From IMG/VR virus record IMGVR_UViG_3300045988_168437: a DNA stretch of 64,000 bases. One strand, 5' to 3'. The DNA is from a virus. Positions 2,577 to 58,036 of the stretch are shown here, piece by piece (position 1 is the stretch's first letter; the number at the start of each line of letters is the position of its first letter). The notes below the pieces were generated by a model that had not been told where the DNA came from, searched no databases, and saw nothing but the letters and a program-made list of their open reading frames with translations. The translations under genes were made by a program, and so were the position numbers.

Positions 2577-2846
2577 CTAATCCTTCATGCTATCATATAT
2601 ATTACTTATAGTCTTTTTAAAAGTATTATCTTTATTCTCTTTTGGTTTAGTAACCTTTGTAACAGGCTTACTCTTTTGAGAGGGAGTAGCTGCTAAAACT
2701 ACCCCCTTAAGCATAAACTTTCTTTCTAATAACATTCTTTCAAGTGCTTGACTGTTTGTAGAAAGTCCATTTTCCTCTTTATAAGCTTTTACATCGTCAT
2801 ACAAGTCTTTAGAGAGAGAATAACTAGTCGTTATCTTCTTCGCCAT
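2577..2846 (-). CDS. parR: ParR-like ribbon-helix-helix centromere-binding protein
   Basis: 89 aa located directly downstream of, and overlapping, the ParM-like gene. The N-terminus has an RHH-like pattern (KKITTSYSLSKDLYDDVKAY...ALERMLLE). Confidence 0.55.
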   Translation of the reverse strand: MAKKITTSYSLSKDLYDDVKAYKEENGLSTNSQALERMLLERKFMLKGVVLAATPSQKSKPVTKVTKPKENKDNTFKKTISNIYDSMKD

Positions 2847-3777
2847 CTATCTCGCCTCCAAACTGCTCTGAACAGATGTAATAAAGTCCTTCGGCAGTAG
2901 CCATTTGAGGATTCTCTATCATCTTATATTTATTGTCAAAATTAAGTCTCATAGAAGTTCCTCCTGCTATTCTAATATCCATTTCATCTGTATTCTTCCA
3001 GATGTCAGAAATGTATTGATTAAGTTTTTCTGACATAAGTTCATAAGCAGATTCTTTCATTTCTTCTGTGGCTGGCTCTGTATCGAAGTCTATTTCAAAA
3101 GTTTCCTTAGAAAGATTCTTCTTCATAAGTCTATCTCTAACTATCTTTAATGCATCTTTATTTCCATATTCCAATGTAGAAGATAAACTATCTCTAAATC
3201 TGCCTCCTCTTTCAAAATAACTAAATTCAGAAGTATTAAAACCAACTGAAACAAGACCAACATGATTATGCTCATTATCTATAAGTCCTTTGTATCTAAG
3301 TCCCATAAGAGCAGCATCTGCTTCTCTGAATATATTTATATTATTTACAGTAACTCTCTTAGTAGTATTATTTATAGCATCTTGTATTTCAAATGTTTTA
3401 CCTTGATATTTATTTATTACCTTACACATCTCTGACTTTCTAAAGCTCTTATTAGGGACTCCTAGCATGATAGAAACATTATCTTCAACTGCTGCTTGAA
3501 GAAGTCCTGTAACAAATAATAATTCGGCAGTTCTTGAAACCTTAGAATCATTATTATTTCTAATTGGGGAATAACTTTCTTTTTCAGATAATTCTCCTAC
3601 AAAATACTTCTTACTTTCATATCCTATACAGATAGGAGCTTCATATTTATCAAAATCTATATCTTCGGTTCTTCCATCTCCCACGATACTTTTGAATACA
3701 AATTCTTTAGGTTTGTTGTTAATAACTGTAAATATCTTTACAAACCCTCTCCCAATATCCATACCTATATATTGCAT
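2824..3777 (-). CDS. parM: ParM/Alp-like actin-fold partition ATPase
   Basis: N-terminus MQYIGMDIGRGFVKI (DxGxxxxK phosphate-1 motif) and IRIAGGTSM near the C-terminus. Start set at the ATG at 3777, after GGAGGT. Confidence 0.7.
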   Translation of the reverse strand: MQYIGMDIGRGFVKIFTVINNKPKEFVFKSIVGDGRTEDIDFDKYEAPICIGYESKKYFVGELSEKESYSPIRNNNDSKVSRTAELLFVTGLLQAAVEDNVSIMLGVPNKSFRKSEMCKVINKYQGKTFEIQDAINNTTKRVTVNNINIFREADAALMGLRYKGLIDNEHNHVGLVSVGFNTSEFSYFERGGRFRDSLSSTLEYGNKDALKIVRDRLMKKNLSKETFEIDFDTEPATEEMKESAYELMSEKLNQYISDIWKNTDEMDIRIAGGTSMRLNFDNKYKMIENPQMATAEGLYYICSEQFGGEIDGEEDND

Positions 3778-3805
3778 ATTATTACCTCCAATATGTTTTT
3801 CTTTA

Positions 3806-3834
3806 ATAGTAGCACATATAATTTTTATTTGCAA
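3806..3834 (-). promoter_or_regulatory. parMR promoter candidate
   Basis: On the minus strand: TTGCAA (3834-3829), 17 nt spacer, TACTAT (3811-3806). Confidence 0.55.
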
Positions 3835-3846
3835 TAATTTTTTGTT

Positions 3847-3974
3847 AATATATCGTTAATTTTTCATTAGTGTTTAAAAATATATTAATATATCATTGAG
3901 AAACAATTAATATCTTGTGAATATATCATTAACATTCCTGATGCACTATATTTTTCTGTGAATATATCATTAGT
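3847..3974. repeat. parC-like centromere: four direct repeats of (G)AATATATC(A/G)TTA
   Basis: Copies start at about 3847, 3887, 3920 and 3961, spaced 33-41 bp apart, immediately upstream of the parMR promoter. Confidence 0.65.
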
Positions 3975-4185
3975 AAACCATGAGTATATAACTGACACTC
4001 TCTATACAAGATTTAGAGCGTTTTGTTTTTCTTCCCTTTGTAATTTATCAATATTATTATAATCAAACTCTTAGAATGGCTCTGACGGGGTTGTATAGTA
4101 AGTATGTAAACATTCTATTTTTCATATAGATTTTGCCGTCTTTAAATTATGAATTTTATAATATAATTTCTTGCATTTTTTATTT

Positions 4186-4330
4186 GGAGATTTGGGATTA
4201 GGAGGAGATGTGTGGGGTTTTATTGAGTGTTGGAGGGGTGATTTTGTAGTGTGTCTGCTGCGTAAACAACTGTTGTCGCCTGCCTGAAATACTCGGAAAA
4301 AATTTCCTAAAACTGGGGGGTGGGGGGATA
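4186..4330. other. G-rich (plus-strand) island in an AT-rich desert; candidate ncRNA or DNA structural site
   Basis: Contains GGAGGAG, GTGGGG, GGAGGGG and GGGGGGTGGGGGG (4315-4327), plus the palindrome ACAACTGTTGT. No ORF. Confidence 0.3.
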
Positions 4331-4451
4331 AATTCTATATAATAATTATATTATATCTACTATTTGAAAATAGGAGCATGATTTTTAAAAAAGGCTACTG
4401 GGAGAGGTTCTAAAATTTTACTTGCATTTTTTACGGTGAATAATTGAAAAA

Positions 4452-4553
4452 TTGCAATTGTTTATAAATTGCAAGCCCTTACATTTTTTCGTCAATTTGC
4501 TTAAATCGTCTGACAATTTACTACAATTGCATAATCCCTCATTAAACTTGCAA
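4452..4553. repeat. cluster of TTGCAA / CAATTGCA motifs
   Basis: At least four copies (4452, 4469, 4524, 4548) within about 100 bp. Confidence 0.5.
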
Positions 4554-4957
4554 TTCGACTCCAAAGTTTCATTAATAAAAAAATATAATAATATTTAATA
4601 ATTTATTTAAAAAATAATCCCTTTATTGTCTGAAATTCCATATAATTTTATTATATAACTTTATTGATTTTATGATATAATATAGACAATATAATATATT
4701 ATTTTTACATTTATTCATAGAATTAAAATACTAATGTATTATACTATTATAATTTATAATTAAATATTAAACAATAACTCATATTATATAATATAGTGTC
4801 GAATACATATAACATTTATTAAAAACAGTAACAGTCCATATGGCTTTTTAAAGCCTTTGCATTCCCTTCCTAATACCTTTATACTTTTAAAGCTTTAAAC
4901 TCTTTATAAGCTTAATAACAGGTTATTAGCCTTATAACCTATAATTTACTATTTATA

Positions 4958-5084
4958 AACAAATAGTTTACTAATACTATACTTTAAAAAAAATTAGTAT
5001 TTATATACTAAAAGTTTACTAATACTATACTAAAATAAGTTTAATATTTTTAAACAAATAGTTTACTAATACTATACTTTAAAC
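4958..5084. repeat. iterons: three copies of AGTTTACTAATACTATAC
   Basis: Copies at 4965-4982, 5013-5030 and 5060-5077 (47-48 bp spacing), with a degenerate fourth copy near 5098-5130. Flanked by an extremely AT-rich tract at 4560-4800. Confidence 0.7.
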
Positions 5085-5696
5085 AAGTATATTTATATTA
5101 AACAAATAGTATATAAATATTAAACTTTAAAATTAGGTTTTTTACCTTCTAAAATCCAGTTTAAAAAGCCTATTTTATAAAGGTATAAAAGTACTATATA
5201 TATATTTAGAGTACTTTTATATTGTCAATTAAGGAATATATAACAGGCTTTTTTATCCCTGTTATATTATATCTAACAACTAACTGGTAAAAGATTATAT
5301 ATTAATAGAGGGGATATTATAACCTTGTAACCTGTTATATAGATAATACTAGATATTTACAACTGGATAACTGGATAATAGATTAACACTAGTTAATAAC
5401 TAGTACTCTATATAAGAATATAATAGCCTTATGCTTTATTAATAATATAAATTATCCATAAGCTATATAAAACCTCTTACATTGGCAATACGGGGATATT
5501 TTAGCCTATACAGTATTTTCAGGAATATATAACCATACCATATAAATTTATTTTTATGGATAAATAAAGTTTTTTAAGAAATATTATTTTTATTATTGAA
5601 ATATTAAACTAGATAGTATACTATTAAAGTATCTTAATTGATAAAACATCTTATATTAATAGCTTAAAACTTTTTTAAAAACTTTTTATAAAGTAG

Positions 5697-5725
5697 TTGA
5701 CAATATAAAGTATATAAGCTACAAT
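5697..5725 (+). promoter_or_regulatory. sigma-70-type promoter
   Basis: TTGACA, 17 nt spacer, TACAAT. Confidence 0.65.
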
Positions 5726-5796
5726 ATAAGAAACAGTACTTTTAATATATTAGTTAACAGGCTTTAAAAAAAGTTTAAAAACTTTTAAAAAAGTAG

Positions 5797-5825
5797 TTGA
5801 CAAGTGATTAAAAAAGTACTATACT
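5797..5825 (+). promoter_or_regulatory. sigma-70-type promoter (tandem copy exactly 100 bp downstream of the previous one)
   Basis: TTGACA, 17 nt spacer, TATACT. The upstream AAAACTTTT...AAGTAGTTGACA context is duplicated. Confidence 0.65.
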
Positions 5826-5891
5826 TAAATTAATAAATGAGTTGATAGTTTTACACTAAAAACTTATTTATTACATATTAACCATAGGAAG

Positions 5892-5921
5892 TTGACTTAT
5901 TCAACTACTATACTTTATAAT
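5892..5921 (+). promoter_or_regulatory. sigma-70-type promoter
   Basis: TTGACT, 18 nt spacer, TATAAT. Confidence 0.55.
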
Positions 5922-6189
5922 AAAGGGGACTAGTAAAGTATTAGTTATCTTATATCCTCACCTAAACAACTTGTAGCTTTATAACTTGTACGGTAAAATA
6001 GAATATTCGACAACTTTGGAAAATCCTTCAATATACCGACTACTCTTTATGTAGTAGCTCATTCTAGTATATTAAAAGCCTGTATCTTGAAGTGCTTAAG
6101 AGTGCTTGGAGTTAGGAGTGTAAGAGTAACAACTCTTTGGATTAAGAATAAATTTTTATCTTTAACCTTTTAACCCTTTTTAAAGGTTT

Positions 6190-6220
6190 GGGGGATACCT
6201 GTTTAAAATCCCCTGTTTTA
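6190..6220 (+). terminator. hairpin plus U-tract in the operon leader (possible attenuator)
   Basis: GGGGAT (6191-6196) pairs with ATCCCC (6208-6213), followed by TGTTTTAAAATT. Confidence 0.3.
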
Positions 6221-6292
6221 AAATTAATCTTTGGGTATAAGGTGACAACTTTATACTCAAATACTAGTTTTAAAATAAAAGGGGGATATAAA

Positions 6293-6496: not shown

Positions 6497-6504
6497 TTAT
6501 TCAA

Positions 6505-6521
6505 GGGACTTTAAAAGTCCC
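6505..6521 (+). other. conserved hairpin 5 nt upstream of the HDV-like cleavage site
   Basis: GGGACTTTAAAAGTCCC. Confidence 0.7.
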
Positions 6522-6526
6522 TATAT

Positions 6527-6587
6527 GGTTCTAGTGATTGATAACCTTCTCGTGGTGGGACTGAATTCGACTAATTTCAATCAATCA
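6527..6587 (+). ncRNA. HDV-like self-cleaving ribozyme candidate A
   Basis: P1 GGUUCUA (6527-33) pairs with UGGGACU (6556-62), starting with a G1-U wobble. P2 UGAUUGAU/AUCAAUCA. P3-L3 CC-UUCUCGU-GG, then GA (P1.1), then GACUAA (J4/2 C candidate). Predicted cut 6526|6527. Confidence 0.75.
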
Positions 6588-6613
6588 AATTTTGGATAAA
6601 AGGGGATAAAAAA

Positions 6614-6928: not shown

Positions 6929-6936
6929 TAAATCCC
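6921..6936 (+). other. hairpin upstream of the HDV-like cleavage site (overlaps the stop codon)
   Basis: GGGATTAATAAATCCC. Confidence 0.6.
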
Positions 6937-6941
6937 TTCAT

Positions 6942-6994
6942 GGTAGCAAGAGTCAACCTCCCCGTGGTGCTACTGGATAATCAACTAATGACTC
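6942..6994 (+). ncRNA. HDV-like self-cleaving ribozyme candidate B (minimal, no P4)
   Basis: P1 GGUAGCA/UGCUACU (7 bp, G1-U wobble). P2 GAGUCA/UGACUC. P3-L3 CC-UCCCCGU-GG, GG after P1 (P1.1), and CUAA just before the P2 3' strand. Predicted cut 6941|6942. Confidence 0.8.
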
Positions 6995-7023
6995 AAATAT
7001 AATAATGTAAAGGGGATAAAAAG

Positions 7024-7362: not shown

Positions 7363-7368
7363 AATGAA

Positions 7369-7385
7369 GGGACTTTTAAAGTCCC
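7369..7385 (+). other. conserved hairpin upstream of the HDV-like cleavage site
   Basis: GGGACTTTTAAAGTCCC. Confidence 0.7.
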
Positions 7386-7390
7386 TAAAT

Positions 7391-7451
7391 GATAGCAAGA
7401 GTTTACCTCCCCGTGGTGCTATTGGAAACAAGGGAACTTGGCTAAAAACTC
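7391..7451 (+). ncRNA. HDV-like self-cleaving ribozyme candidate C
   Basis: P1 GAUAGCA/UGCUAUU. P2 GAGUUU/AAACUC. CC-UCCCCGU-GG, then GG. P4 CAAG-GGAA-CUUG, then GCUAA. Predicted cut 7390|7391. Confidence 0.8.
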
Positions 7452-7479
7452 AAATTTTAGATAAAAGGGGATAAAAAAG

Positions 7480-8033: not shown

Positions 8034-8115
8034 AAGGCGAAATTCGAAACAAGGACCACGGTCCTTGTCTGTAAGTAATGAGTTGCTTATACTGACGAGA
8101 TAGCTCGAGCCTTAC
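8034..8115 (+). ncRNA. type II hammerhead ribozyme candidate HH1
   Basis: C-GAAAC; stem III AAGGACC/GGUCCUU; GUC cut site (8069|8070); stem I UGUAAG/CUUAUA; CUGACGAG. Loop I GAGUU pairs with downstream AGCUC. Closing helix AAGGC/GCCUU. Confidence 0.8.
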
Positions 8116-8141
8116 AAATAAATAAAAAGGGGATAAAAAAG

Positions 8142-8315: not shown

Positions 8316-8321
8316 ATGATA

Positions 8322-8338
8322 GGGACTTTAGAAGTCCC
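8322..8338 (+). other. conserved hairpin upstream of the HDV-like cleavage site
   Basis: GGGACTTTAGAAGTCCC. Confidence 0.7.
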
Positions 8339-8342
8339 GTAT

Positions 8343-8403
8343 GGTTCTAGTTGTTGGTAGCCTTCCCGTGGCGGAACTGAATTCGACTAATTTTAACCAA
8401 CAA
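8343..8403 (+). ncRNA. HDV-like self-cleaving ribozyme candidate D
   Basis: P1 GGUUCU/GGAACU. P2 UUGUUGGU/ACCAACAA, which covaries with copy A. P3-L3 GCC-UUCCCGU-GGC, then GA, then GACUAA. Predicted cut 8342|8343. Confidence 0.75.
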
Positions 8404-8426
8404 AAATGATAGTAAAGGGGATAAAG

Positions 8427-8909
8427 ATGATGATAAAAAGATTACCAGAAACAAGTTTAATGACTATTAAGGCAATGATAAGAGAATATAGCGAAGTTGA
8501 GACAATAGTTATTAATGAAGTGGATAACTACTGGAATGATAGATGTAAGCAAATATATCAAGCTCCAGGGACTTCTTTAGAAGTCGATATATATCAAGGT
8601 ACTTGTAAAATCAATATCCATGATAGAGAATTGATGGTAAGAAGTTTATATGATGAAGCGAATAAATCAACAGATAGTGTATTTCTTGACTCTGAGCGTC
8701 ATTGTATACAAGGTATGTATGCTCATAGAAAAGATGATATGTTTGAAATTTATTTAAAAGCATACATTAGATGTATTGAAGAATATATCTCTAATATGCA
8801 GCATGTATTTGACAAATATTCTCTAGCAACTTGGATACAAAATCATCCTGACAACTTCAACAAGTGGGCAGTAGATGAAGACACTTGCGAATTTTTCAGA
8901 ATGATATAA
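8427..8909 (+). CDS. hypothetical protein
   Basis: Start moved to the ATGATG at 8427, after AAAGGGGATAAAG. The track start at 8406 lies just after the ribozyme and lacks an SD. Confidence 0.7.
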   Translation: MMIKRLPETSLMTIKAMIREYSEVETIVINEVDNYWNDRCKQIYQAPGTSLEVDIYQGTCKINIHDRELMVRSLYDEANKSTDSVFLDSERHCIQGMYAHRKDDMFEIYLKAYIRCIEEYISNMQHVFDKYSLATWIQNHPDNFNKWAVDEDTCEFFRMI

Positions 8910-8914
8910 ATGAT

Positions 8915-8931
8915 GGGACTTTTAAAGTCCC
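8915..8931 (+). other. conserved hairpin upstream of the HDV-like cleavage site
   Basis: GGGACTTTTAAAGTCCC. Confidence 0.7.
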
Positions 8932-8936
8932 TATAT

Positions 8937-8999
8937 GGTAGTAATTGGTTCGCCTCCACGTGGCACTACTGGAAACGAGTTTACTCGGCTAAGAGTCAA
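8937..8999 (+). ncRNA. HDV-like self-cleaving ribozyme candidate E
   Basis: P1 GGUAGU/ACUACU. P3-L3 GCC-UCCACGU-GGC, then GG. P4 CGAG-UUUA-CUCG, then GCUAAG. P2 UUGGUU/AGUCAA (two G-U pairs). Predicted cut 8936|8937. Confidence 0.7.
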
Positions 9000-9018
9000 A
9001 AAAGAAGGGATAAAAAAG

Positions 9019-9339
9019 ATGATAAAAAAGATTGAAGAAAAAATTAAAGAATTGGGTTTCGTTGTAGGTTGTTACAACGATAAAATTGATGACATTTTAA
9101 CTCCAGGAGCAGCTCGTAAAGTTTGTGGGTTACTAGAAGAAGAATACACAGACGAATTGATGCGAATTAGAGGTAAACTATATAAAGTCTGTATAGCAAC
9201 TGTTGACGATGAAAAAGATATCAATATATATCATGCATTAGACTATTATAGACAATACGGAGAAGAACATCTGGATAATGACTATGAAGAAAAAATGATG
9301 ACATTAAAGGAATATAGAGCATTGAAAAAGATGGTATAA
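9019..9339 (+). CDS. hypothetical protein (106 aa)
   Basis: Start moved to the ATG at 9019, after AGAAGGGATAAAAAAG. The track start at 8935 lies inside the ribozyme. Confidence 0.7.
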   Translation: MIKKIEEKIKELGFVVGCYNDKIDDILTPGAARKVCGLLEEEYTDELMRIRGKLYKVCIATVDDEKDINIYHALDYYRQYGEEHLDNDYEEKMMTLKEYRALKKMV

Positions 9340-9340
9340 A

Positions 9341-9430
9341 ACAAATTCGAAACAAAGGACCATGGAGTAATTCATGGTCCTTTGTCTGTAAGCAATAGGC
9401 TACTTATACTGACGAGATAGCCTGTTGCTA
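9341..9430 (+). ncRNA. type II hammerhead ribozyme candidate HH2
   Basis: UUCGAAAC; stem III AAAGGACCAUG/CAUGGUCCUUU; GUC (cut 9386|9387); stem I UGUAAG/CUUAUA; CUGACGAG. Loop I CAAUAGGCUA pairs with downstream UAGCCUGUUG. Confidence 0.8.
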
Positions 9431-9456
9431 AAAATGATGATAAAAAGGGGATAAGA

Positions 9457-9744
9457 ATGATGAGAGAACATGCAATATATAAAGATTATATCAGATATAT
9501 AGGAGATGGATTTAATTTTTCAGAATTATATTCATATGAAGATGGTAAAGAATTACATTTCAATAAATTTATGGATTATTGGGAAGACTCTAAAACTGGT
9601 AGATTTTATCGTTGGAAAAATTCAAAAGATGATAAAATTATAAAGGAATGTCATGAAGAAACACTTGATTATTTTGGATTTAAATCTAGTCGACTAAATG
9701 ATGATAAAGAATCTTTAAAAGATGAAGAATATCTACCATTCTAA
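9457..9744 (+). CDS. hypothetical protein (95 aa)
   Basis: ORF track with AAAAGGGGATAAGA SD context. Confidence 0.7.
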   Translation: MMREHAIYKDYIRYIGDGFNFSELYSYEDGKELHFNKFMDYWEDSKTGRFYRWKNSKDDKIIKECHEETLDYFGFKSSRLNDDKESLKDEEYLPF

Positions 9745-9746
9745 TG

Positions 9747-9829
9747 AAGGTAATAAATTCGAAACAAGGACTAAGGTCCTTGTCTGTAAATGATAGGCTC
9801 TTTATACTGACGAGATAGCCTATTACCTT
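9747..9829 (+). ncRNA. type II hammerhead ribozyme candidate HH3
   Basis: Closing helix AAGGUAAU/AUUACCUU; UUCGAAAC; stem III AAGGAC/GUCCUU; GUC (cut 9784|9785); stem I UGUAAA/UUUAUA; CUGACGAG. Loop I AUAGGCU pairs with downstream AGCCUAU. Confidence 0.85.
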
Positions 9830-9856
9830 TACAATAGAAATGAAAGGGGATTAAAG

Positions 9857-10411
9857 ATGATGATGGGAAAATTAGTAAACTTAAGTGACTTTGAATTAAA
9901 TAGAGAAAATGCAAAAATGATACTTGAAAACAATAGTGAGTTTAGACAAGTTTTAATTGATGAATTATTTGAAAATGAAATTGATTATTATTGTTCAGAA
10001 ATATTAGAAAAAATACCTGAAATAAGTTGGAATATCAATTATTCAGATGTTAGAATATGGACTAAGTTTGGTTCTAATGTTATTAACATAATTGAAGGTA
10101 TATTTGATATTGACGAATATCTTACAGAAAACTGTAATATCATAATCAGTAAATTAAAAGTTTATCATAAATATCTGACTACTTGTTGTCAATATGATAA
10201 TAGATGGGATAGATTAATTGCTAGAACTGAAAAATTAGTTGACGATTTATTGAATGAACTTGAGCAAATGATAGGAACATATTTAGAAGCGATTAACGAT
10301 GATGATGACGAAATAATCGAATATTGTATAAGTTCAATGGAAGGGATTATATGTTCTACAATTTATATAAATCCTAAAACATTAGATTTATACGAATTAA
10401 AGCATTTATAA
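9857..10411 (+). CDS. acidic hypothetical protein, paralogue of 7480-8028
   Basis: See the 7480 entry. AAAGGGGATTAAAG SD context. Confidence 0.75.
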   Translation: MMMGKLVNLSDFELNRENAKMILENNSEFRQVLIDELFENEIDYYCSEILEKIPEISWNINYSDVRIWTKFGSNVINIIEGIFDIDEYLTENCNIIISKLKVYHKYLTTCCQYDNRWDRLIARTEKLVDDLLNELEQMIGTYLEAINDDDDEIIEYCISSMEGIICSTIYINPKTLDLYELKHL

Positions 10412-10413
10412 TA

Positions 10414-10442
10414 TTGACAGTTTTACACAAAAGTGATACTAT
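10414..10442 (+). promoter_or_regulatory. internal sigma-70-type promoter
   Basis: TTGACA, 17 nt spacer, TACTAT. Confidence 0.6.
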
Positions 10443-10448
10443 TAAATC

Positions 10449-10530
10449 AAGGGGAGTAATCCCCTTCCTAATGCAGTAGCTAAAAGCTAGAGGTCGCAAC
10501 TCCTCATAAAACATATGCAGAGCGGGAAAA
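10449..10530 (+). ncRNA. unclassified structured leader (three hairpins) in a slot otherwise occupied by ribozymes
   Basis: AAGGGGA-GUAA-UCCCCUU, UAGCU-AAA-AGCUA, and GAGG-UCGCAACU-CCUC. I cannot match it to a known core. Confidence 0.3.
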
Positions 10531-10545
10531 TGAAAGGGGATAAAG

Positions 10546-10992
10546 ATGATGAAAATAAAAGAATTATATGAAAACATTAGTAACTGTTTAGATTGGATTA
10601 AAATCAACAATAGTGACTTAAAAGACATATTTGAAGGTGCTAAAGCATTAAGAAGAGGAATTCAAGTCTTAGAATATGATAAAGCAATGATAGGTAAAAT
10701 TGATGATAACTATTTTATTTCAGATTTTATTATGAATATTCTTAAAAAGAATCTTCCAGAGTATCAATTAAGTTTAGGCATAATTGACGATGTTTTAGAA
10801 GAACTAGACATAGATGATGATACTTTAGAAGAATTAGATGAAAGCGAATTTGAAAATCATGTTATAATCAAAAATACTTTCGTAGATGTAAAAGAAGCAA
10901 TTTCTTTTGATGATTACTGGGATTTACCAGATTTTGATAGTCTTTTAAAAATGTTTGAATTTGCAAAAGAAGAAATTGGTTACTTATTATAA
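10546..10992 (+). CDS. very acidic hypothetical protein (148 aa)
   Basis: ORF track with AAAGGGGATAAAG SD context. Confidence 0.7.
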   Translation: MMKIKELYENISNCLDWIKINNSDLKDIFEGAKALRRGIQVLEYDKAMIGKIDDNYFISDFIMNILKKNLPEYQLSLGIIDDVLEELDIDDDTLEELDESEFENHVIIKNTFVDVKEAISFDDYWDLPDFDSLLKMFEFAKEEIGYLL

Positions 10993-11082
10993 GTTTAAAT
11001 TCGAAACAGGTAGTACAGGAAATCCTGTATTGCTTGTCTGTAAGTAATAGGCTACTTATACTGACGAGATAGCCTGAACTTA
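10990..11082 (+). ncRNA. type II hammerhead ribozyme candidate HH4
   Basis: Closing helix UAAGUU/AACUUA; UUCGAAAC; 12-bp stem III AGGUAGUACAGG/CCUGUAUUGCUU; GUC (cut 11038|11039); UGUAAG/CUUAUA; CUGACGAG. Loop I AGGCUA pairs with UAGCCU. Confidence 0.8.
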
Positions 11083-11110
11083 TAAATATGATGATAAAAA
11101 GGGGATAAAG

Positions 11111-11557
11111 ATGATGGCAAAGAGAATTGATATAGTAAGATGTAAAATGGTAAAGGAAAGTTCAGTTAAGTATGAAAAAAGAGTGATAACATCACCTTTT
11201 GATGGCTATATAATAGTAAAAGATTTTCTTGAAGACTTAGACAGAGAACAAGTGATGATGCTTTGTTTAAATAGTAAAAATGAACCTACAAACTTATCTG
11301 TTATAAGTATGGGGACTGTAAATAGTTCATTGATACATCCAAGAGAAGTATTTAAAATAGCAATACTTTCAAATGCTAGTAAAATCATGTTGGCACATAA
11401 TCATCCATCAGGAAATCCAAGTCCTTCTCATGAAGATGAATTAATGACAAAGAGAATCAAAGATTGTGGAGATATGATGGGAATTCAATTATTGGACCAT
11501 ATAATTGTAGGCGATAACACTTATTATAGTTTTAAAGAAAATAATTCAATATTATAA
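11111..11557 (+). CDS. radC: RadC-like JAB/MPN-domain protein
   Basis: HNHPSGNPSPSHED (JAMM-like H-x-H-P-S-G...S-x-x-D motif typical of RadC/DUF2466). 148 aa. Confidence 0.8.
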   Translation: MMAKRIDIVRCKMVKESSVKYEKRVITSPFDGYIIVKDFLEDLDREQVMMLCLNSKNEPTNLSVISMGTVNSSLIHPREVFKIAILSNASKIMLAHNHPSGNPSPSHEDELMTKRIKDCGDMMGIQLLDHIIVGDNTYYSFKENNSIL

Positions 11558-11565
11558 TATTTTAC

Positions 11566-11594
11566 TTGTTATCTTTATACAAAAATGATATAAT
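11566..11594 (+). promoter_or_regulatory. internal sigma-70-type promoter immediately upstream of HDV-like ribozyme F
   Basis: TTGTTA, 17 nt spacer, TATAAT. The predicted TSS is near 11601. Confidence 0.55.
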
Positions 11595-11610
11595 AAGGAT
11601 AGCAAGATAT

Positions 11611-11674
11611 GACGGCAAAGGTTCTTCCTCCCCGTGGTGTCGTCGGGAACTCCTAACAGGTGCTAAATAGAACC
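11611..11674 (+). ncRNA. HDV-like self-cleaving ribozyme candidate F
   Basis: P1 GACGGCA/UGUCGUC. P2 GGUUCU/AGAACC. CC-UCCCCGU-GG, then GG. P4 CUCCU-AAC-AGGUG, then GCUAA. Predicted cut 11610|11611. Confidence 0.75.
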
Positions 11675-11695
11675 AAAAATGAAAGGGGAATAAAG

Positions 11696-12082
11696 ATGAT
11701 GAAAGAATTAAAAAGACTAAATCAAATTGATTTAACAGAAAATCAAACAAAAAAACTCTTAAATAATGATATTTTTAAGGAAAGTGTCATAGACAAACTT
11801 GCTAGTTATTTTAATCATTGTATTTATGAAAAATATGTACTTAATCATATAATTCATTTTGAATGTGAATACAATACAAAAACAAATTTCTTTAAATATA
11901 AAATAGTTGAAGAGAATGATAAAAATCAAGAAGTTTTGGATAACTTAAAAAACGATATAAATAACTATTATCAATATTTGCAAGATAAAAATAGCCTTAA
12001 AGAGAATATAAAAGTCATCGTAAAGAGATTAGATGATAATTATTATGTTGATAATGATTTTAATGTTTATAAAGTTATTTAG
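11696..12082 (+). CDS. hypothetical protein
   Basis: Start moved to the ATGATG at 11696, after AAAGGGGAATAAAG. The track start at 11660 lies inside the ribozyme. Confidence 0.7.
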   Translation: MMKELKRLNQIDLTENQTKKLLNNDIFKESVIDKLASYFNHCIYEKYVLNHIIHFECEYNTKTNFFKYKIVEENDKNQEVLDNLKNDINNYYQYLQDKNSLKENIKVIVKRLDDNYYVDNDFNVYKVI

Positions 12083-12091
12083 GAGGTAAAA

Positions 12092-12358
12092 ATGATGAAA
12101 ACTTTAAATCAAATTGAATGGAAAAATCTGTTAAAAAATATGGATACAGAAGAAGGCAGACAAGAGTTTATAAGCAGAGTACCATCTGGAATATATGGTG
12201 GTAAAAATGAAGACGGAGAAGAAGTTATAACAGTTGTATCTCAAGGATTTGGGATGACAATAAAGACTAAACATCATGAGAAACCAAACTGGTGGGAATG
12301 TGTTGATTATGATGAACTTGGCTGCATGGAATGTGTAACATATGAAAGAGCAGATTAA
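12092..12358 (+). CDS. hypothetical protein (88 aa)
   Basis: ORF track with AGGAGGT SD. Confidence 0.7.
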   Translation: MMKTLNQIEWKNLLKNMDTEEGRQEFISRVPSGIYGGKNEDGEEVITVVSQGFGMTIKTKHHEKPNWWECVDYDELGCMECVTYERAD

Positions 12359-12361
12359 TTA

Positions 12362-12454
12362 GAAGGATAAATTCGAAACAGGTAGAATGAGGCAACTCAT
12401 TTTACTTGTCTATAAGGTTAAGCTACTTATACTGACGAGATAGCTTAATCCTTC
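12362..12454 (+). ncRNA. type II hammerhead ribozyme candidate HH5
   Basis: Closing helix GAAGGAU/AUCCUUC; UUCGAAAC; 12-bp stem III; GUC (cut 12410|12411); stem I UAUAAG/CUUAUA; CUGACGAG. Loop I UUAAGCUA pairs with UAGCUUAA, which covaries relative to the other copies. Confidence 0.85.
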
Positions 12455-12476
12455 AAAATGAAAGGGGATAAAAAAG

Positions 12477-13004
12477 ATGATGAAAAGAGAAAATGTTGTG
12501 AAATTTTTAGATTTATTACGTTCTGATGAAGTTAATGACGAAATAAAAGATTTATATATTGAACTATTAGAAGGACATATTCAAGATGCTCCAGGAACTC
12601 AAATTGAAATTATATTAGACTTAGACGGAGAAATTGATGAAAGATACTTTGTAGGAAATTCAACTAGAATGGATGTATATGAAGGCGATGCAATAGTTGT
12701 AGCAAGTATCAGATATGATGCAAACGTTACTTATGAAGACATGGGAGAATTATCAGATGCTTTAGATGAATCTGAATATGAAAAATTCGTAGAATGGATA
12801 TTTGCATACGAAGATATATCAGAAGATGATGAAAAAGAATATTTCGAAGAAAACTTTACATGGGAAAATTTTTCAGAATTTAATCCTGATAGATTTAAAG
12901 AGCTAGAAGAAGAATCTTGGCAAGCAAATGTTGATTATTACGGATATGAAGAAATTGGGCAAAAATTATCTGAATGTATACAACAATTAGAAACTTTATT
13001 ATAG
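12477..13004 (+). CDS. extremely acidic hypothetical protein (175 aa); DNA-mimic-like composition
   Basis: ORF track with long D/E-rich runs. No motif recognised. Confidence 0.7.
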   Translation: MMKRENVVKFLDLLRSDEVNDEIKDLYIELLEGHIQDAPGTQIEIILDLDGEIDERYFVGNSTRMDVYEGDAIVVASIRYDANVTYEDMGELSDALDESEYEKFVEWIFAYEDISEDDEKEYFEENFTWENFSEFNPDRFKELEEESWQANVDYYGYEEIGQKLSECIQQLETLL

Positions 13005-13020
13005 GGGCAGCAATTGCTCC

Positions 13021-13080
13021 TACTTTAAACCTACCAATGATGGTCCAAAGTCCATATGGAAAAAGGTGATGGGAGTAAAT
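13021..13080 (+). ncRNA. twister ribozyme candidate (type P1) Tw1
   Basis: UACU-U-U|AA; P2 ACCU/AGGU; ACC-AAU-G; P4 AUGG/CCAU with loop UCCAAAGU; A-rich strand; GAU-GGG-AGUA. Same block order as canonical twister. Predicted cut 13026|13027. Preceded by hairpin 13006-13020. Confidence 0.7.
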
Positions 13081-13141
13081 AAAGGCGAAGCTACTAAAAT
13101 ACTCGTCTATATATAAGAGTAGCAATTAAAAGGGGGTAAAA

Positions 13142-13456
13142 ATGAAGGTATATTTAGGGAATGCTTTTAGTTTACAAATGTTAGACACAACAAAGACTAC
13201 AGATATAAAAGTAACACCAGTTGATGCATCAGTTGTAGCAAGTTCAGATTTTACATCAGTTATAGGTCATCCAGATACAGCTGCAGTAGTTTCAAACATC
13301 TTAGGAAAAGACGTAGCTTGTAATAGAGTTTCTGTTAGTTTAAGTAAAGGTGACATTTTATATGTAGCACAAGTTGTTGGTGGCAGACTTCCTGCTGGAG
13401 CTACCACTCTACCAGACGGATTTAGTTTAGTATTTTTAAAAGTTGTCATTCTATAA
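13142..13456 (+). CDS. DUF1874 / STIV-B116-like protein (family assignment from memory)
   Basis: 104 aa. MKVYLGNAFSLQML...SVIGHPDTAAVVSNILG...ILYVAQ resembles that family. Confidence 0.45.
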   Translation: MKVYLGNAFSLQMLDTTKTTDIKVTPVDASVVASSDFTSVIGHPDTAAVVSNILGKDVACNRVSVSLSKGDILYVAQVVGGRLPAGATTLPDGFSLVFLKVVIL

Positions 13457-13521
13457 AAAGGTAGAAGGCTTATAGGAGTGTCTCAAACTCCTACATTATG
13501 TAAATGAAGGGAGAATTAAAA

Positions 13522-13659
13522 ATGAAAGTTAAAAAAGAAATTACAATTGAAGAAGAATTTGAAATACATATGAAAAGCATGGAAGGGCATGTTTGCTATG
13601 GTTGCTCAGGTTGTAAGTTTGCTTACTATGGAGTTTGCCCATATGTTCAAGAGGGTTAA
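13522..13659 (+). CDS. small Cys-rich protein (45 aa, below the ORF-track cutoff)
   Basis: ATG follows GAAGGGAG. Reads MKVKKEITIEEEFEIHMKSMEGHVCYGCSGCKFAYYGVCPYVQEG. Confidence 0.4.
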   Translation: MKVKKEITIEEEFEIHMKSMEGHVCYGCSGCKFAYYGVCPYVQEG

Positions 13660-13665
13660 TCCCTC

Positions 13666-13730
13666 TACTTTAAACTCACTTGACTAAGTCAAAAGGTCCA
13701 AAGTCCTTGAAAAGAGTGATGGGAGTAAAT
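13666..13730 (+). ncRNA. twister ribozyme candidate (type P1, with P3 insert) Tw2
   Basis: Same conserved blocks as Tw1. P2 ACUC/GAGU and P4 AAGG/CCUU both covary. An extra hairpin UGAC-UAA-GUCA sits at the optional-P3 position. Predicted cut 13671|13672. Preceded by hairpin GAGGG-UUAAU-CCCUC. Confidence 0.7.
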
Positions 13731-13747
13731 GAAAGGGGTAAAATGAT

Positions 13748-14023
13748 ATGAATAATTCTATTAAAAGATTAAAAGAAAAATTAATTGGAAAAGAATTCAA
13801 AGAAGAAGATTATAATAAAGAGTTAAATAATCTTGTAAAAGAATTTCATTTAGAGGCAAATACTTGTGATTTTGATTTTGACAGATTATATCACATTGGA
13901 TATGAAGAAAAAGAAAATTGGGATGATGAATATGTTTGTAGTATACAAGTTAATTATATTCCTGTATATGATGAAAATGGATATCATGACTTTGATATCA
14001 TAAAAATATTTGATGTGTTTTAA
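13748..14023 (+). CDS. hypothetical protein (91 aa)
   Basis: ORF track with AAAGGGGTAAAATG context. Confidence 0.65.
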   Translation: MNNSIKRLKEKLIGKEFKEEDYNKELNNLVKEFHLEANTCDFDFDRLYHIGYEEKENWDDEYVCSIQVNYIPVYDENGYHDFDIIKIFDVF

Positions 14024-14053
14024 TATAATTAAATCATATAGGGAGGTATGAAA

Positions 14054-14221
14054 ATGAGAACTTACTTAGCAGATTATGAAGACGATAATTTTGAAACAAT
14101 AATAGCGAATACAGATAATGAAGCTTACTTTGAAGCTCTTGACCATGAAGAAGAACATGGGACTTTATATAATCTTTTTGAAATTGATGATGACTACAAT
14201 AAAATAAGAGAAGTTAAATAG
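14054..14221 (+). CDS. small acidic protein (55 aa, below the ORF-track cutoff)
   Basis: ATG sits 7 nt after GGGAGGT. Reads MRTYLADYEDDNFETIIANTDNEAYFEALDHEEEHG... and its stop abuts HH6. Confidence 0.5.
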   Translation: MRTYLADYEDDNFETIIANTDNEAYFEALDHEEEHGTLYNLFEIDDDYNKIREVK

Positions 14222-14296
14222 AAGGCAAAATTCGAAACCGTGGTGGTCCACGGTCTGTAAGCAATAGGCTACTTATACTGACGAGATAGCCTTGCC
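14221..14296 (+). ncRNA. type II hammerhead ribozyme candidate HH6
   Basis: Closing helix GGCAA/UUGCC; UUCGAAAC; stem III CGUGG/CCACG; GUC (cut 14255|14256); UGUAAG/CUUAUA; CUGACGAG. Loop I AGGCUA pairs with UAGCCU. Confidence 0.8.
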
Positions 14297-14426
14297 AACA
14301 ATAAAAAGGAAGGTAAGATAAAATAGCTATCAAGAACTCGTGAAAACGGGTGTTGAATAAATTATCATTTTGGGAGAGGGTTGCCCTCTCCTATCCCCAA
14401 TATAAATGGGAGAGAGGAGTATAATA

Positions 14427-14777
14427 ATGATAAATACTTATGCTTATGAAATAAAACCACATATCTTTGACAGTATTATAGTTACTGTGAAAGATGATGA
14501 TAATAACTATGTTGAATTATTAGCTATGAAAGATAAGACAATTGGGGATTATAGAACTTTTTTACACGGTGAAGTAAATAGCACTATTTTCCAAAAAGAT
14601 TATCGTAATAGTAAATATTATAAAAAGGTAGGCAGAGGTAGAATAAAGGACGAAAAAAGAACCCTAGATACAATTAGCAGATTAGTTGGGACAGGAAAAC
14701 ATATTATTCTTTTTCGTTTAGATAACTATATAAAAGATAATAATTTTGAAGGTGACATTAAAATATCATTTAAGTAA
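14427..14777 (+). CDS. hypothetical protein
   Basis: Start moved to the ATG at 14427, after GAGAGGAG. Confidence 0.65.
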   Translation: MINTYAYEIKPHIFDSIIVTVKDDDNNYVELLAMKDKTIGDYRTFLHGEVNSTIFQKDYRNSKYYKKVGRGRIKDEKRTLDTISRLVGTGKHIILFRLDNYIKDNNFEGDIKISFK

Positions 14778-14786
14778 TATATATAA

Positions 14787-14814
14787 TAATCCCCTGATTG
14801 GGGGTTATTTTTTT
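14787..14814 (+). terminator. rho-independent terminator closing the ribozyme operon
   Basis: TAATCCCC-TGATT-GGGGGTTA followed by TTTTTTT. Confidence 0.75.
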
Positions 14815-30445: not shown

Positions 30446-31561
30446 ATGATACTTGCAAAGAAAGTTAGATTGCGCCCAAGTGAACTACAAGAAGAAAAAT
30501 TATGGAAATCAGTAGGGACTGCAAGATTTATTTATAATTGGACTTTAAATAGGCAAGAAGAAAATTATAAAGGTGGTGGTAAATTCATACCTGATAGTGT
30601 TCTTAGAAAAGAAATAACTCAATTAAAGAAAACTGACTTAAGTTGGTTAAATGAAGTATCTAATAATGTTGCAAAACAAGCTGTAAAAGATGCCTGTGAT
30701 TCATATAAAAGATTCTTTAAAGGATTGTCAGGTAAACCTAGATTTAAAAGTAGGAAAAGAAGTAAGAAGTCTTTTTATCATGACAATGTTAAACTTAAAG
30801 TTAAAGATAATAAATTAGTTAAGATTGAAAAAGTTGGGTGGATAAAAACCAATGAACAATTACCTATTGGAGTTAAATATACCAATCCGAGAATTAGTTA
30901 TGATAATAAGTATTGGTATTTATCTGTAGGAATTGAACAGGAAGGAATCCAAGAAGAATTAACAGAAATATCATTAGGAATAGATTTAGGGTTGAAAAAC
31001 TTAGCAATTTGTTCCGATGGTGCAATATATAAAAATATAAATAAAACTTGTACAGTCAAAAAAATCGAAAAGAAACTAAAAAGATTACAAAGACAAATAA
31101 GTAGAAAGTATGAAAAAAATAAAAAAGGAAAGGAGTATGTCAAAACTAAAAATATTATAAAACTTGAAAAGCAGATACAACAAGTACATAGAAGGTTGAC
31201 TAACATTAGAAATAACTATCTTCATCAAACTACGACAAGTATAGTGAAAACCAAACCATACAGAGTTGTAATAGAAGATTTAAGTGTTTCTAATATGATG
31301 AAAAATAAACATTTATCTGATGCTATAAGGAAACAAGGATTCTATGAATTCAGAAGACAACTTGAATACAAGTGTAAATTTAGAGGAATTAAGTTAGTCG
31401 TAGCAGATAGATTTTATCCATCGTCAAAAATTTGTAGCCAATGTGGAGAGATTAAGAAGGATTTAAAGCTATCCGATAGAGTATACAAGTGTGATTGTGG
31501 GCTTGTGATTGATAGAGATTTAAATGCAAGTATTAATCTTTCTAAATATAAATTAGCATAA
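30446..31561 (+). CDS. tnpB: IS200/IS605-family TnpB (OrfB) RNA-guided nuclease, with no adjacent tnpA
   Basis: N-terminus KVRLRPSELQEEKLWKSVGTARFIYNW. RuvC D (GIDLGLKN), E (VVIEDLS) and D (DRDLNASINL). Zinc ribbon CSQCG...CDCG. Confidence 0.9.
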   Translation: MILAKKVRLRPSELQEEKLWKSVGTARFIYNWTLNRQEENYKGGGKFIPDSVLRKEITQLKKTDLSWLNEVSNNVAKQAVKDACDSYKRFFKGLSGKPRFKSRKRSKKSFYHDNVKLKVKDNKLVKIEKVGWIKTNEQLPIGVKYTNPRISYDNKYWYLSVGIEQEGIQEELTEISLGIDLGLKNLAICSDGAIYKNINKTCTVKKIEKKLKRLQRQISRKYEKNKKGKEYVKTKNIIKLEKQIQQVHRRLTNIRNNYLHQTTTSIVKTKPYRVVIEDLSVSNMMKNKHLSDAIRKQGFYEFRRQLEYKCKFRGIKLVVADRFYPSSKICSQCGEIKKDLKLSDRVYKCDCGLVIDRDLNASINLSKYKLA

Positions 31562-31745
31562 TATCATTAATAAGATAATGCTAATATGTAGGATGTGTTG
31601 TATCCGAATTTACGCCCTTGGAGAGTTATATCAAACGAAAGTAGGTTGTTATTTATAATTTCCAAAATCGAATTCGTAGAACAGGGAATTAAACAAGATT
31701 TATAGATATTTATAGATTTTTGGCAACAGAGATTTTCTCCTCTTT
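31500..31745 (+). ncRNA. probable omega-RNA / right-end region of the TnpB element (boundaries not resolved)
   Basis: Positional inference: omega-RNAs overlap the tnpB 3' end and the RE. The 31562-31745 segment is noncoding and noticeably less AT-rich. Confidence 0.35.
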
Positions 31746-56578: not shown

Positions 56579-58036
56579 ATGAAAAAGAAAAACAACGATG
56601 TTATCATTGAGTTTTTAGGGACCAGTAGAGACGAAGTTACTGGCTCATGTGTGCTAGTTTCATATGTAAATTCAGATAACGAAAGGGAAAATATCCTAAT
56701 CGAATGTGGAATGAATCAGGGGTGTCCTACTATATTATCTGACTATAATACAAATAAAAGAATGGTTGAGAAAGTTCCGTTTTCAAACATTAAATATATA
56801 TTTGTTAATCATGTCCATGTAGACCATATAGGAAACCTTCCTACTGCCTTCAACAGAGGATTTACAGGAGAGGTAATAACAACAGAAGACAATAGAGAAT
56901 TAATGATTCCCTTACTTAATGACACATATACAATACATTTAAAAAATGTAAAAAAAATAAATGAAAAAGGAAAGAATTTAGATTTACTCTTTAATAAAAT
57001 AGATGTACATACTGCTATTCATAAAACTAGAATCTTTGAAAAAAATATTATTCATAAATTAAATGAAACTCTTTCTTTTAGATTCTTGCCAAATAATCAT
57101 TGCGTAGGAGCTTGTCAATTAGAATTGTTTATTAAGAAACCAAGTGGGAAAATTGCTAAAATATTTTATTCATCAGATTTAGGCTCTAATTACAATTCTA
57201 AGTACTCTCCTTTCTTGGATGATATAGTATATTCAACTACTTCTGACATAGCTATATTCGAAGCGACATATGGCAATAAAGACAGAAATTTTGCTAAGAA
57301 AAACGTAATCAACGAAAGAAAAGATTTAATTACACAAATAAAAAAATATACTAGTATGAATCATCGAGTTTTAATACCTTCTTTTTCATTTAGTAGAAGT
57401 CAAATGCTTATGTCATTTTTATATGATAATTTAAAAGACGATAAAGATTTTGACAACATTTCAGTTATAGTCGATTCTAAACTATTAAATGACATTAATG
57501 GAGTTTATAGCAAAATACTTAAAGGAGAAAATAAAGAATATTGGGAACAGGTTTTAAGTTGGAGCAATTTTCATTTTGTTAAGGAATTTAAAGATACCGA
57601 AACCATTATTAAGAAGAAAGATATCCCAATGGTGATAATTTCAAGCGCTGGAATGTGTAATGCAGGGCATGTAGTAAGTTATGCTAAATCTATATTGCTA
57701 AATCCTAATGACTGCATGATATTTGTTGGTTATTGTGGCTTAAACACTTTAGGAAGTATGATTCAGAATAATAGACTAAATAGCGTTACAATAAACAGAG
57801 AAATATACGAAAAAAAATGCGATATCATTTCTTACAAAACTTTTTCTTCTCATATACAACAAGCAGAACTTATTGATTATATGAAAAAAATCAATACAGG
57901 AAAAATTTTATTGCATCATGGTAGTACTAGCAGTAAAGAGGAACTTAAATTAGCAGCTAAAGAAGAATTGTTCAAGGCAAATAAAACAACTCCTATTGAA
58001 ATAGTAACAAATAAGAACAAGGAGTTTAGAGTTTAA
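56579..58036 (+). CDS. MBL-fold beta-CASP nuclease (RNase J/CPSF-like)
   Basis: VNHVHVDHIGNLP (HxHxDH). Size and layout are consistent with the beta-CASP family. Confidence 0.65.
   Translation: MKKKNNDVIIEFLGTSRDEVTGSCVLVSYVNSDNERENILIECGMNQGCPTILSDYNTNKRMVEKVPFSNIKYIFVNHVHVDHIGNLPTAFNRGFTGEVITTEDNRELMIPLLNDTYTIHLKNVKKINEKGKNLDLLFNKIDVHTAIHKTRIFEKNIIHKLNETLSFRFLPNNHCVGACQLELFIKKPSGKIAKIFYSSDLGSNYNSKYSPFLDDIVYSTTSDIAIFEATYGNKDRNFAKKNVINERKDLITQIKKYTSMNHRVLIPSFSFSRSQMLMSFLYDNLKDDKDFDNISVIVDSKLLNDINGVYSKILKGENKEYWEQVLSWSNFHFVKEFKDTETIIKKKDIPMVIISSAGMCNAGHVVSYAKSILLNPNDCMIFVGYCGLNTLGSMIQNNRLNSVTINREIYEKKCDIISYKTFSSHIQQAELIDYMKKINTGKILLHHGSTSSKEELKLAAKEELFKANKTTPIEIVTNKNKEFRV

Follow-up and report, generated by a model that had tools for sequence, protein, structure and literature searches.

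Introduction

Twister self-cleaving ribozymes are held together by two pseudoknots. In T2, a "GC" dinucleotide of loop L2 pairs with two bulged nucleotides of loop L4, and in T1, L4 pairs with the 3′ strand of loop L1 through three Watson-Crick pairs plus an A-A pair (PMC5408937). Stem P4 continues into a nearly invariant G-C pair and a U-A pair, and about 20% of twisters, the rice ribozyme among them, lack stem P3 (PMC5408937); by frequency, P0 is present in 21% of twisters, P3 in 78% and P5 in 1% (PMC6154101). What self-cleaving ribozymes do in bacteria and phages is still largely unknown (PMC6765202). For twisters, a part in processing polycistronic transcripts has been suggested (PMC6765202), and clustered hammerheads flanking prophage genes cleave polycistronic RNA in vitro (PMC3088659); the processing role of bacterial hammerheads and twisters has nonetheless been called unproven (PMC6765202, PMC3088659). 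Here, we analyze two elements, Tw1 and Tw2, in a 64,000-nucleotide stretch of viral DNA (IMG/VR record IMGVR_UViG_3300045988_168437; hereafter the window). Judged from sequence, these are very probably functional type-P1 twister self-cleaving ribozymes, encoded on the sense strand of an operon of small phage genes and predicted to cleave its transcript.

The Oryza sativa Osa-1-4 twister (type P1, no P3; 4OJI) has the same order of elements as Tw1, which is also without P3. Both have the same CAAUG junction leading from T2 to P4, the UAA of the cleavage site, an 8-nt L4 with the frame U-C-C-N-A-A-G-N, and a GA after P2. The initial annotation of this locus compared Tw1 with a rice twister sequence whose letters agree with all positions named in PMC5113685 (G13, C14, C25, C26, G30, C31, A40, A46, and G48) and with the U6-A7 scissile bond (PMC6154101). 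Unlike Osa-1-4, the phage locus has A-U in place of T2 pair G13-C31 and of T1 pair C27-G47, and it differs further in its A/U-rich helices, in the P0-like hairpin that precedes P1, and in coming from a phage and not a plant.

The twister consensus of Roth et al. 2014 reportedly has P3, as in env22 and env9. Against this consensus and the corresponding Rfam model RF03160 (twister-P1), Tw2 aligns along the full 68 positions, P1, P2, P3, and P4 included, and it differs in its short P3, in an A-U pair in both pseudoknots, and in its score of 46.6 bits against a gathering score of 67.2. The P3-less and P3-bearing forms, P0, the association with phages, and the presence of other ribozymes nearby are all already known for twisters.

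Results

The initial annotation had described two type-P1 twisters within positions 13021–13730. On re-reading, the letters it quoted are present there, and the identity of both elements is borne out by full-length alignment to RF03160, by folding, and by covariation. In a cmscan search of 951 nt (12900–13850), Tw1 (13022–13076, + strand), which lacks P3, scored 34.4 bits (E 1.7e-5) and Tw2 (13667–13726, + strand), which carries P3, scored 46.6 bits (E 5.2e-9), each over model positions 1–68; our own model, R1, scored them at 67.5 and 78.2 bits. A DNA pattern of twister shape picked out Tw1 and Tw2 and nothing else in the window, with no match in 100 shuffles, and minimum-free-energy folds recovered P0, P1, P2, and P4 in both elements and P3 in Tw2 only. 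Every structural feature of type-P1 twisters that we looked for is present in Tw1 and Tw2, and only the Rfam score cut-off is not reached.

Tw1 reads ACUU-U/AA-ACCU-AC-CAAUG-AUGG-UCCAAAGU-CCAU-AUGGAAAA-AGGU-GAUGG-GAGU, where the slash marks the predicted cut at U13026/A13027. All parts of both elements lie on the + strand. P1 pairs A13022–U13025 with G13073–U13076, P2 pairs 13029–13032 with 13064–13067, and P4 pairs 13040–13043 with 13052–13055. The L2 dinucleotide is A13033 C13034, followed by the linker CAAUG, L4 occupies 13044–13051 (UCCAAAGU), and the L1 3′ strand GAUGG occupies 13068–13072, its first residue, 13068, being the candidate catalytic G. T2 consists of A13033-U13051 and C13034-G13050, and T1 of C13045-G13072, C13046-G13071, and A13047-U13070. 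Tw2 reads ACUU-U/AA-ACUC-AC-[UUGAC-UAA-GUCAA]-AAGG-UCCAAAGU-CCUU-GAAAA-GAGU-GAUGG-GAGU, with the bracketed letters forming P3, a 5-bp helix with a 3-nt loop (13680–13684 with 13688–13692). Its P1 pairs 13667–13670 with 13723–13726, its P2 pairs 13674–13677 with 13714–13717, and its P4 pairs 13693–13696 with 13705–13708; the predicted cut is at U13671/A13672, the L2 dinucleotide is A13678 C13679, L4 lies at 13697–13704, and the L1 3′ strand GAUGG lies at 13718–13722, with 13718 as candidate catalytic G. Here T2 consists of A13678-U13704 and C13679-G13703, and T1 of C13698-G13722, C13699-G13721, and A13700-U13720.

Both elements show the stem order P1, P2, P4, their ends lie in P1, P3 is either closed or missing, and there is no P5. 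The two cut positions had been predicted in the initial annotation and agree with the twister alignment and the modeled folds; the compensatory changes it described in P2 and P4 of Tw2 are likewise seen in the RF03160 alignment, the covariation, and the folds. The Tw2 hairpin was rightly assigned to the P3 position, and its description as an insert has to be turned around: because P3 is the majority state, found in 78% of twisters (PMC6154101, PMC5408937), it is Tw1 that represents a minority P3-less form. Similarly, the reported change from GCC..AAGC to ACC..AAGU does convert a G-C to an A-U pair, but this pair belongs to T2 (G13-C31 in rice numbering) and not to T1, where it had been placed. 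A second compensated swap had been overlooked, in which T1 pair C27-G47 (rice numbering) becomes A-U through CCA for CCC in L4 and GAUGG for GAGGG in L1.

The cleavage-site UAA (13026–13028 and 13671–13673) is invariant in the 20 relatives described below, as is the GA 3′ of P2 (G45 and A46 in rice numbering; G13068 A13069 and G13718 A13719). The L4 frame, with its closing G-C, U..A pair, and AA, is GUCCAAAGUC in both elements against a consensus of GUCCCAAGCC, and its G, U, C, C, A, A, G, and final C are kept. All letters tied to catalysis or intolerant of mutation are retained in the RF03160 alignment, namely A at +1, the GA that follows P2, and, in L4, AA and G (PMC5113685, PMC5408937).

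The exact core strings of Tw1 and Tw2 occur on one IMG/VR contig of 138 kb (L001). A broader search pattern, in which the T1 and T2 letters were free as R or Y, mismatches were possible, and many core letters were fixed, matched 14 viral, 44 metagenome, and 7 reference-genome stretches. From these, 20 distinct sequences on IMG/VR and metagenome contigs with 11–12 of the 12 pairs in P1, P2, and P4 were taken as real relatives; 18 distinct metagenome matches and all 7 reference-genome matches had at most 8 of 12 helix pairs and were set aside as chance matches. Over the full structure with both pseudoknots, 96.7% of paired cells in the 20 relatives are complementary, compared to 79.6% in shuffled alignments and 32–46% with slid partners. 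Both-sided changes occur at 11 of the 20 pairs, and the covariation score of 0.516 (0.203 in shuffles) was reached by 0 of 500 shuffles. By stem, pairing is 96% in P1, 92.5% in P2, and 100% in P4, with both-sided changes, and P1, P2, P3, and P4 all covary. T1 and T2 are 100% paired: 13 sequences have A-U and 7 have G-C at T2 pair 12-39, the middle T1 pair (34-60) occurs as C-G 15 times and as U-A 5 times, and neither is ever unpaired. Weak R1 matches in L142, L146, L147, L158, L170, and L001 (3173–3254) have no L4, fall in coding or other sequence, and were rejected as false positives.

The pseudoknot letters vary as complementary sets. T1 is CCA:UGG in Tw1 and Tw2, CCC:GGG in the consensus, CUA:UAG in relatives, and CGC:GCG in other phage twisters; T2 is AC:GU in Tw1 and Tw2, GC:GC in relatives, and AG:CU in L224. 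Even the Tw2 orthologue on the 138-kb contig (3410–3468) has GC..GC against AC..GU in the window. A scan for twisters with a CGC:GCG T1, leaving the T2 letters wholly free, returned real matches with T2 as AC:GU, GC:GC, or AG:CU. The T2 variants thus recur among independent viral twisters, so that compensated pseudoknot swaps are not peculiar to this locus, and on the evidence of these alignments the swaps are natural, recurrent, compensated variation. In the rice mutational study (PMC5113685), the ribozyme is inactivated by a single change at G13, G30, A46, or G48, accepts other Watson-Crick pairs in place of C14-G30 of T2 and of most T1 pairs, and tolerates C31U. Tw1 and Tw2 offer a natural case of covariation in both pseudoknots, at sites where the rice ribozyme does not tolerate single mutations.

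A hairpin directly adjoins the 5′ end of each element on the + strand, GGGGCA/UGCUCC at 13004–13020 before Tw1 (−9 kcal/mol) and AGAGGG/CCCUCU at 13650–13666 before Tw2 (about −9 kcal/mol). The former fits the optional P0 and would form the 3′ terminus of the upstream cleavage product; the latter is P0-like, and an upstream hairpin directly adjoins P1 in 18 of 22 related twisters. Tw1 and Tw2 flank a STIV_B116-like gene (13142–13456, + strand; Pfam PF08960, E 7e-10; phrog_5063) together with a 51-aa open reading frame (ORF) at 13504–13659, and 21 nt past Tw2 lie the ribosome-binding site (RBS; aaagggg) and start of a further + strand gene (13748–14023). Both twisters are on the gene strand, in the order stop codon, hairpin, ribozyme, RBS. 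Between Tw1 and its RBS is an extra 65-nt spacer (13077–13141) with a hairpin, GCUACU..AGUAGC, that covaries in L001 (GUUACC..GGUAAC). The spacer starts with aaaggcgaa, similar to what is found 5′ of the hammerhead cassettes described below, and may be a remnant of a replaced ribozyme.

Tw1 and Tw2 belong to a larger array. From three tandem promoter-like sites on the + strand (5697–5921), which lie upstream of the array's first gene and are consensus matches only, with 11 of 12 positions each, to an intrinsic-terminator-like hairpin and T-run (14785–14809, + strand) at the end of the ribozyme-bearing operon, nearly every intergenic region has a + strand element resembling a self-cleaving ribozyme, followed by a aaaggggataaa RBS. 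These number about 15 in 8.5 kb: 3 twisters, 6 hepatitis delta virus (HDV)-like elements, and 6 elements resembling type II hammerheads. No + strand terminator was found inside the array. The third twister-P1 candidate (10465–10528, + strand; RF03160 35.9 bits, local E 1e-6; fold z-score −3.4) is preceded by a P0-like hairpin (10450–10464) and has the T1 CGC:GCG common to other viral twisters. Its L4 ends in AACU and the dinucleotide after its P2 is GU, with an AG able to pair 2 nt beyond it, within the predicted P3. The stretch immediately before this candidate (10414–10442) holds a promoter-like site, TTGACA-17-TACTAT with TG.

The HDV-like candidates are intergenic and on the + strand, at 6497–6613, 6929–7023, 7363–7479, 8316–8405, 8910–9020, and 11558–11695. 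Two match RF02682 below threshold (40.2 bits at 8938–9001 and 24.3 bits at 7392–7454), and the other four were read by eye from P1, P2, P4, and the conserved CUAA. P1, P2, and P4 covary among the six by reading; a MAFFT alignment of the 3′ halves was too poor for counting pairs. A GGGACUUU(U/A)A(A/G)AGUCCC hairpin precedes four of the six (those at 6497, 7363, 8316, and 8910) and is absent from those at 6929 and 11558. The hammerhead-like elements, also on the + strand, are at 8041–8123, 9344–9440, 9756–9838, 10998–11092, 12370–12463, and 14229–14309, with predicted cuts after 8069, 9386, 9784, 11038, 12410, and 14255, respectively. All six have the CUGACGA, GAAA, and GUC core, hairpins at stems III and I, and a covarying pseudoknot of 6–10 bp between loop I and the 3′ tail, an architecture described by Perreault et al. 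(PMC3088659); none matched the Rfam hammerhead models at E ≤ 1. The predicted hammerhead cut falls just 3′ of the stem III hairpin. In all three classes, then, a hairpin would usually form the 3′ terminus of the upstream product.

Most array genes are without a family match, the matching ones being RadC-like, DUF7222, and STIV_B116-like, and genes for a DUF3846 protein and a gp17-like exclusion protein lie just downstream of the array. The window as a whole is about 28% G+C, with nearly all genes from 6 kb onward on the + strand, and it encodes a DNA polymerase III alpha, NrdD, a DnaB-like helicase, DHH phosphoesterases, a beta-CASP nuclease, and a ParM-like protein. The polymerase is 35–38% identical to those of Geobacillus virus E3 and phiCD211-like Clostridioides difficile phages (about 130 kb), which, together with the gene content, assigns the window to a large, uncharacterized Bacillota phage. 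Megablast of 8–20 kb against GenBank phages gave no match.

The window is 99.5% identical to metagenome contig OLOX01000258.1 across 9404–14699, and the same figure and span hold for L160. At 513–1077, opposite window positions 8406–8430, L160 has an extra cassette of a gene and a twister inserted at the common aaaggggataaagATGATG RBS/ATGATG junction, so that the homologue of window ORF 8406/8427 is preceded there by a twister and in the window by an HDV-like element. In L129, a well-formed HDV-like element (2832–2905), and not a twister, precedes the B116-like gene, and on the 138-kb contig the place of Tw1 is taken by a twister with P3. The array is a mosaic among relatives, and in L129 and L160 the ribozyme is kept at the same gene as its class changes.

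Three further features of the window were noted. A non-coding, A/T-rich region of about 2.3 kb (3860–6290) separates the divergent ParM-like gene (2824–3834, − strand) from the array; it contains promoter units at 100-nt spacing (5664–5703 and 5764–5803) and a 95-nt repeat (4945–5126) and may be an origin, partition site, or control region. The beta-CASP/RMMBL nuclease (56579–58036) is related to the RNase J and CPSF family and could bear on the fate of ribozyme-made 5′-OH RNAs. Lastly, a RAGATH-18 RNA at 31615–31688 scores 67.6 bits, above its gathering score, and lies 54 nt 3′ of a transposase-like ORF of 371 aa (30446–31561; phrog_506). IS607 TnpB proteins have been published with RAGATH-18-derived guide RNAs (PMC11061315), and the pair probably makes up an RNA-guided nuclease element carried by the phage.

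Discussion

Tw1 and Tw2 most likely serve to cut a polycistronic early phage transcript into single-gene RNAs. The operon would be transcribed as a long polycistronic RNA from the promoters near 5.7–5.9 kb, and each twister would fold as P0-P1-P2-[P3]-P4, locked by T1 and T2. By established twister chemistry, the 2′-OH of the U at U13026/A13027 and U13671/A13672 would attack the scissile phosphate, with the G 3′ of P2 (13068 and 13718) and the A at +1 acting in catalysis, to give a 2′,3′-cyclic phosphate and a 5′-OH. The upstream product would carry the P0 hairpin plus 5–6 nt at its 3′ end, and the downstream product would begin with the compact ribozyme body, after which come the RBS and start codon of the following gene. 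Acting with the 13 further ribozymes, the twisters may divide the transcript into RNAs of one or two genes with structured ends, allowing the stability and translation of each cassette to be set independently. The presence of one ribozyme per intergenic region and the class swaps between near-identical phages make this a good place for testing such mRNA processing.

Several observations weigh against functional twisters at these sites. Neither element reaches the RF03160 gathering score of 67.2 bits, which is an annotation cut-off and not a structural feature, and both are consequently missed by a default Rfam scan, which over the whole window returned the RAGATH-18 RNA only and no twister. 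The initial annotation had held that the lack of any twister-family hit would speak against it; such a lack is seen at the gathering threshold only, and at E-value thresholds both sites match twister-P1. The fold z-scores are modest (−1.4 for Tw1 and −1.6 for Tw2), which is not unusual for short pseudoknotted RNAs, and the minimum-free-energy fold of Tw1 pairs CCA 13034–13036 with UGG 13057–13059, which would compete with T2. The relatives come from a small number of lineages, all of closely related phages, and were collected with a pattern in which many core letters were set, so the independent substitution events are few, at least one per pseudoknot pair. In Bacillus, RNase J1 degrades the 5′-OH product of the glmS ribozyme, so that cleavage here might destabilize the downstream RNA instead of protecting it. 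In the rice study (PMC5113685), G13 tolerates no single substitution, and full speed after conversion of G13-C31 to A-U is not stated there.

One could imagine from the sub-threshold scores that Tw1 and Tw2 are decayed or slow twister relics, copied by recombination between intergenic regions and retaining the fold after losing a useful cleavage rate. Their core strings are identical, as for recent copies, a consensus G-C pair is now A-U at one position in each pseudoknot, which would weaken the tertiary helices, and the third twister is without an obvious T2. We nevertheless regard this as unlikely, since the changes in T1 and T2 are all compensated in 20 of 20 distinct relatives, P1, P2, P3, and P4 covary, the catalytic letters are all intact, and the rice ribozyme is active with compensated pseudoknot pairs (PMC5113685). 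The low scores also extend to the array as a whole: at the gathering threshold, Rfam misses 14 of the about 15 elements here, a count that includes the HDV-like element at 8938–9001 with 40.2 bits against a 44-bit cut-off, which indicates that such cut-offs miss sets of A/U-rich phage ribozymes.

Homology for recombination needs no ribozyme fold, and it is very unlikely that the conserved intergenic modules of hairpin, ribozyme, RBS, and ATGATG serve mainly as recombination joints for cassette exchange, with RNA cleavage secondary. That cassettes are exchanged is suggested by the near-identical window and L160 (99.5% across 9404–14699), which differ by a whole gene-plus-twister cassette at aaaggggataaagATGATG, by the mosaic array among relatives, and by the 184-aa array ORF at 9857–10411, for which no relative was found in IMG/VR. 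However, three unrelated classes at equivalent positions, with covarying helices, imply selection on RNA structure and catalytic cores, and exchange at these joints is in any case compatible with functional ribozymes. We tentatively propose a ribozyme-punctuated cassette array, an idea that we consider possible and somewhat short of an even chance, in which each small early gene of this Bacillota phage of about 130 kb has its own RBS, hairpin, and ribozyme, and in which twister, HDV-like, and hammerhead elements may be interchangeable boundary modules swapped with their genes by recombination at the RBS/start junction. If true, the array would be a natural system in which to test the purpose of bacterial and phage self-cleaving ribozymes gene by gene.

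That Tw1 and Tw2 are some other structured RNA merely resembling a twister, such as a twister-sister or a protein-binding leader or attenuator, is scarcely credible, as nothing specific favors it beyond one lower-scoring, overlapping same-clan Rfam match that was left out, the + strand hairpins are without the T-runs of a terminator or attenuator, and T1 and T2, which define twisters and are absent from twister-sister (PMC5408937), are present and covarying. Twister-sister bears a vague resemblance in its stems and also has an internal loop in which a conserved A sits beside the cleavage site (PMC5408937), but it lacks T1 and T2 and cuts the opposite strand of the internal loop, whereas Tw1 and Tw2 have both pseudoknots; clan competition likewise kept twister-P1 as the best match. 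A coding explanation was also rejected, the ORFs at the sites (12974–13069 and 13589–13687) being 31–32 aa long and overlapping the ribozyme cores.

For the array, the closest described systems are the clustered prophage hammerheads of Perreault et al. 2011 (PMC3088659), in which several ribozymes flank single genes or short blocks on one polycistronic transcript. Hammerheads of the same kind, type II with loop I and the 3′ tail joined in a pseudoknot, are also found in the window. The dense three-class array with its class swaps extends these known clusters and is not itself a new phenomenon. It differs from them in interleaving three ribozyme classes at about one element per intergenic region, and in that the class found at a given gene differs between close relatives of the window.

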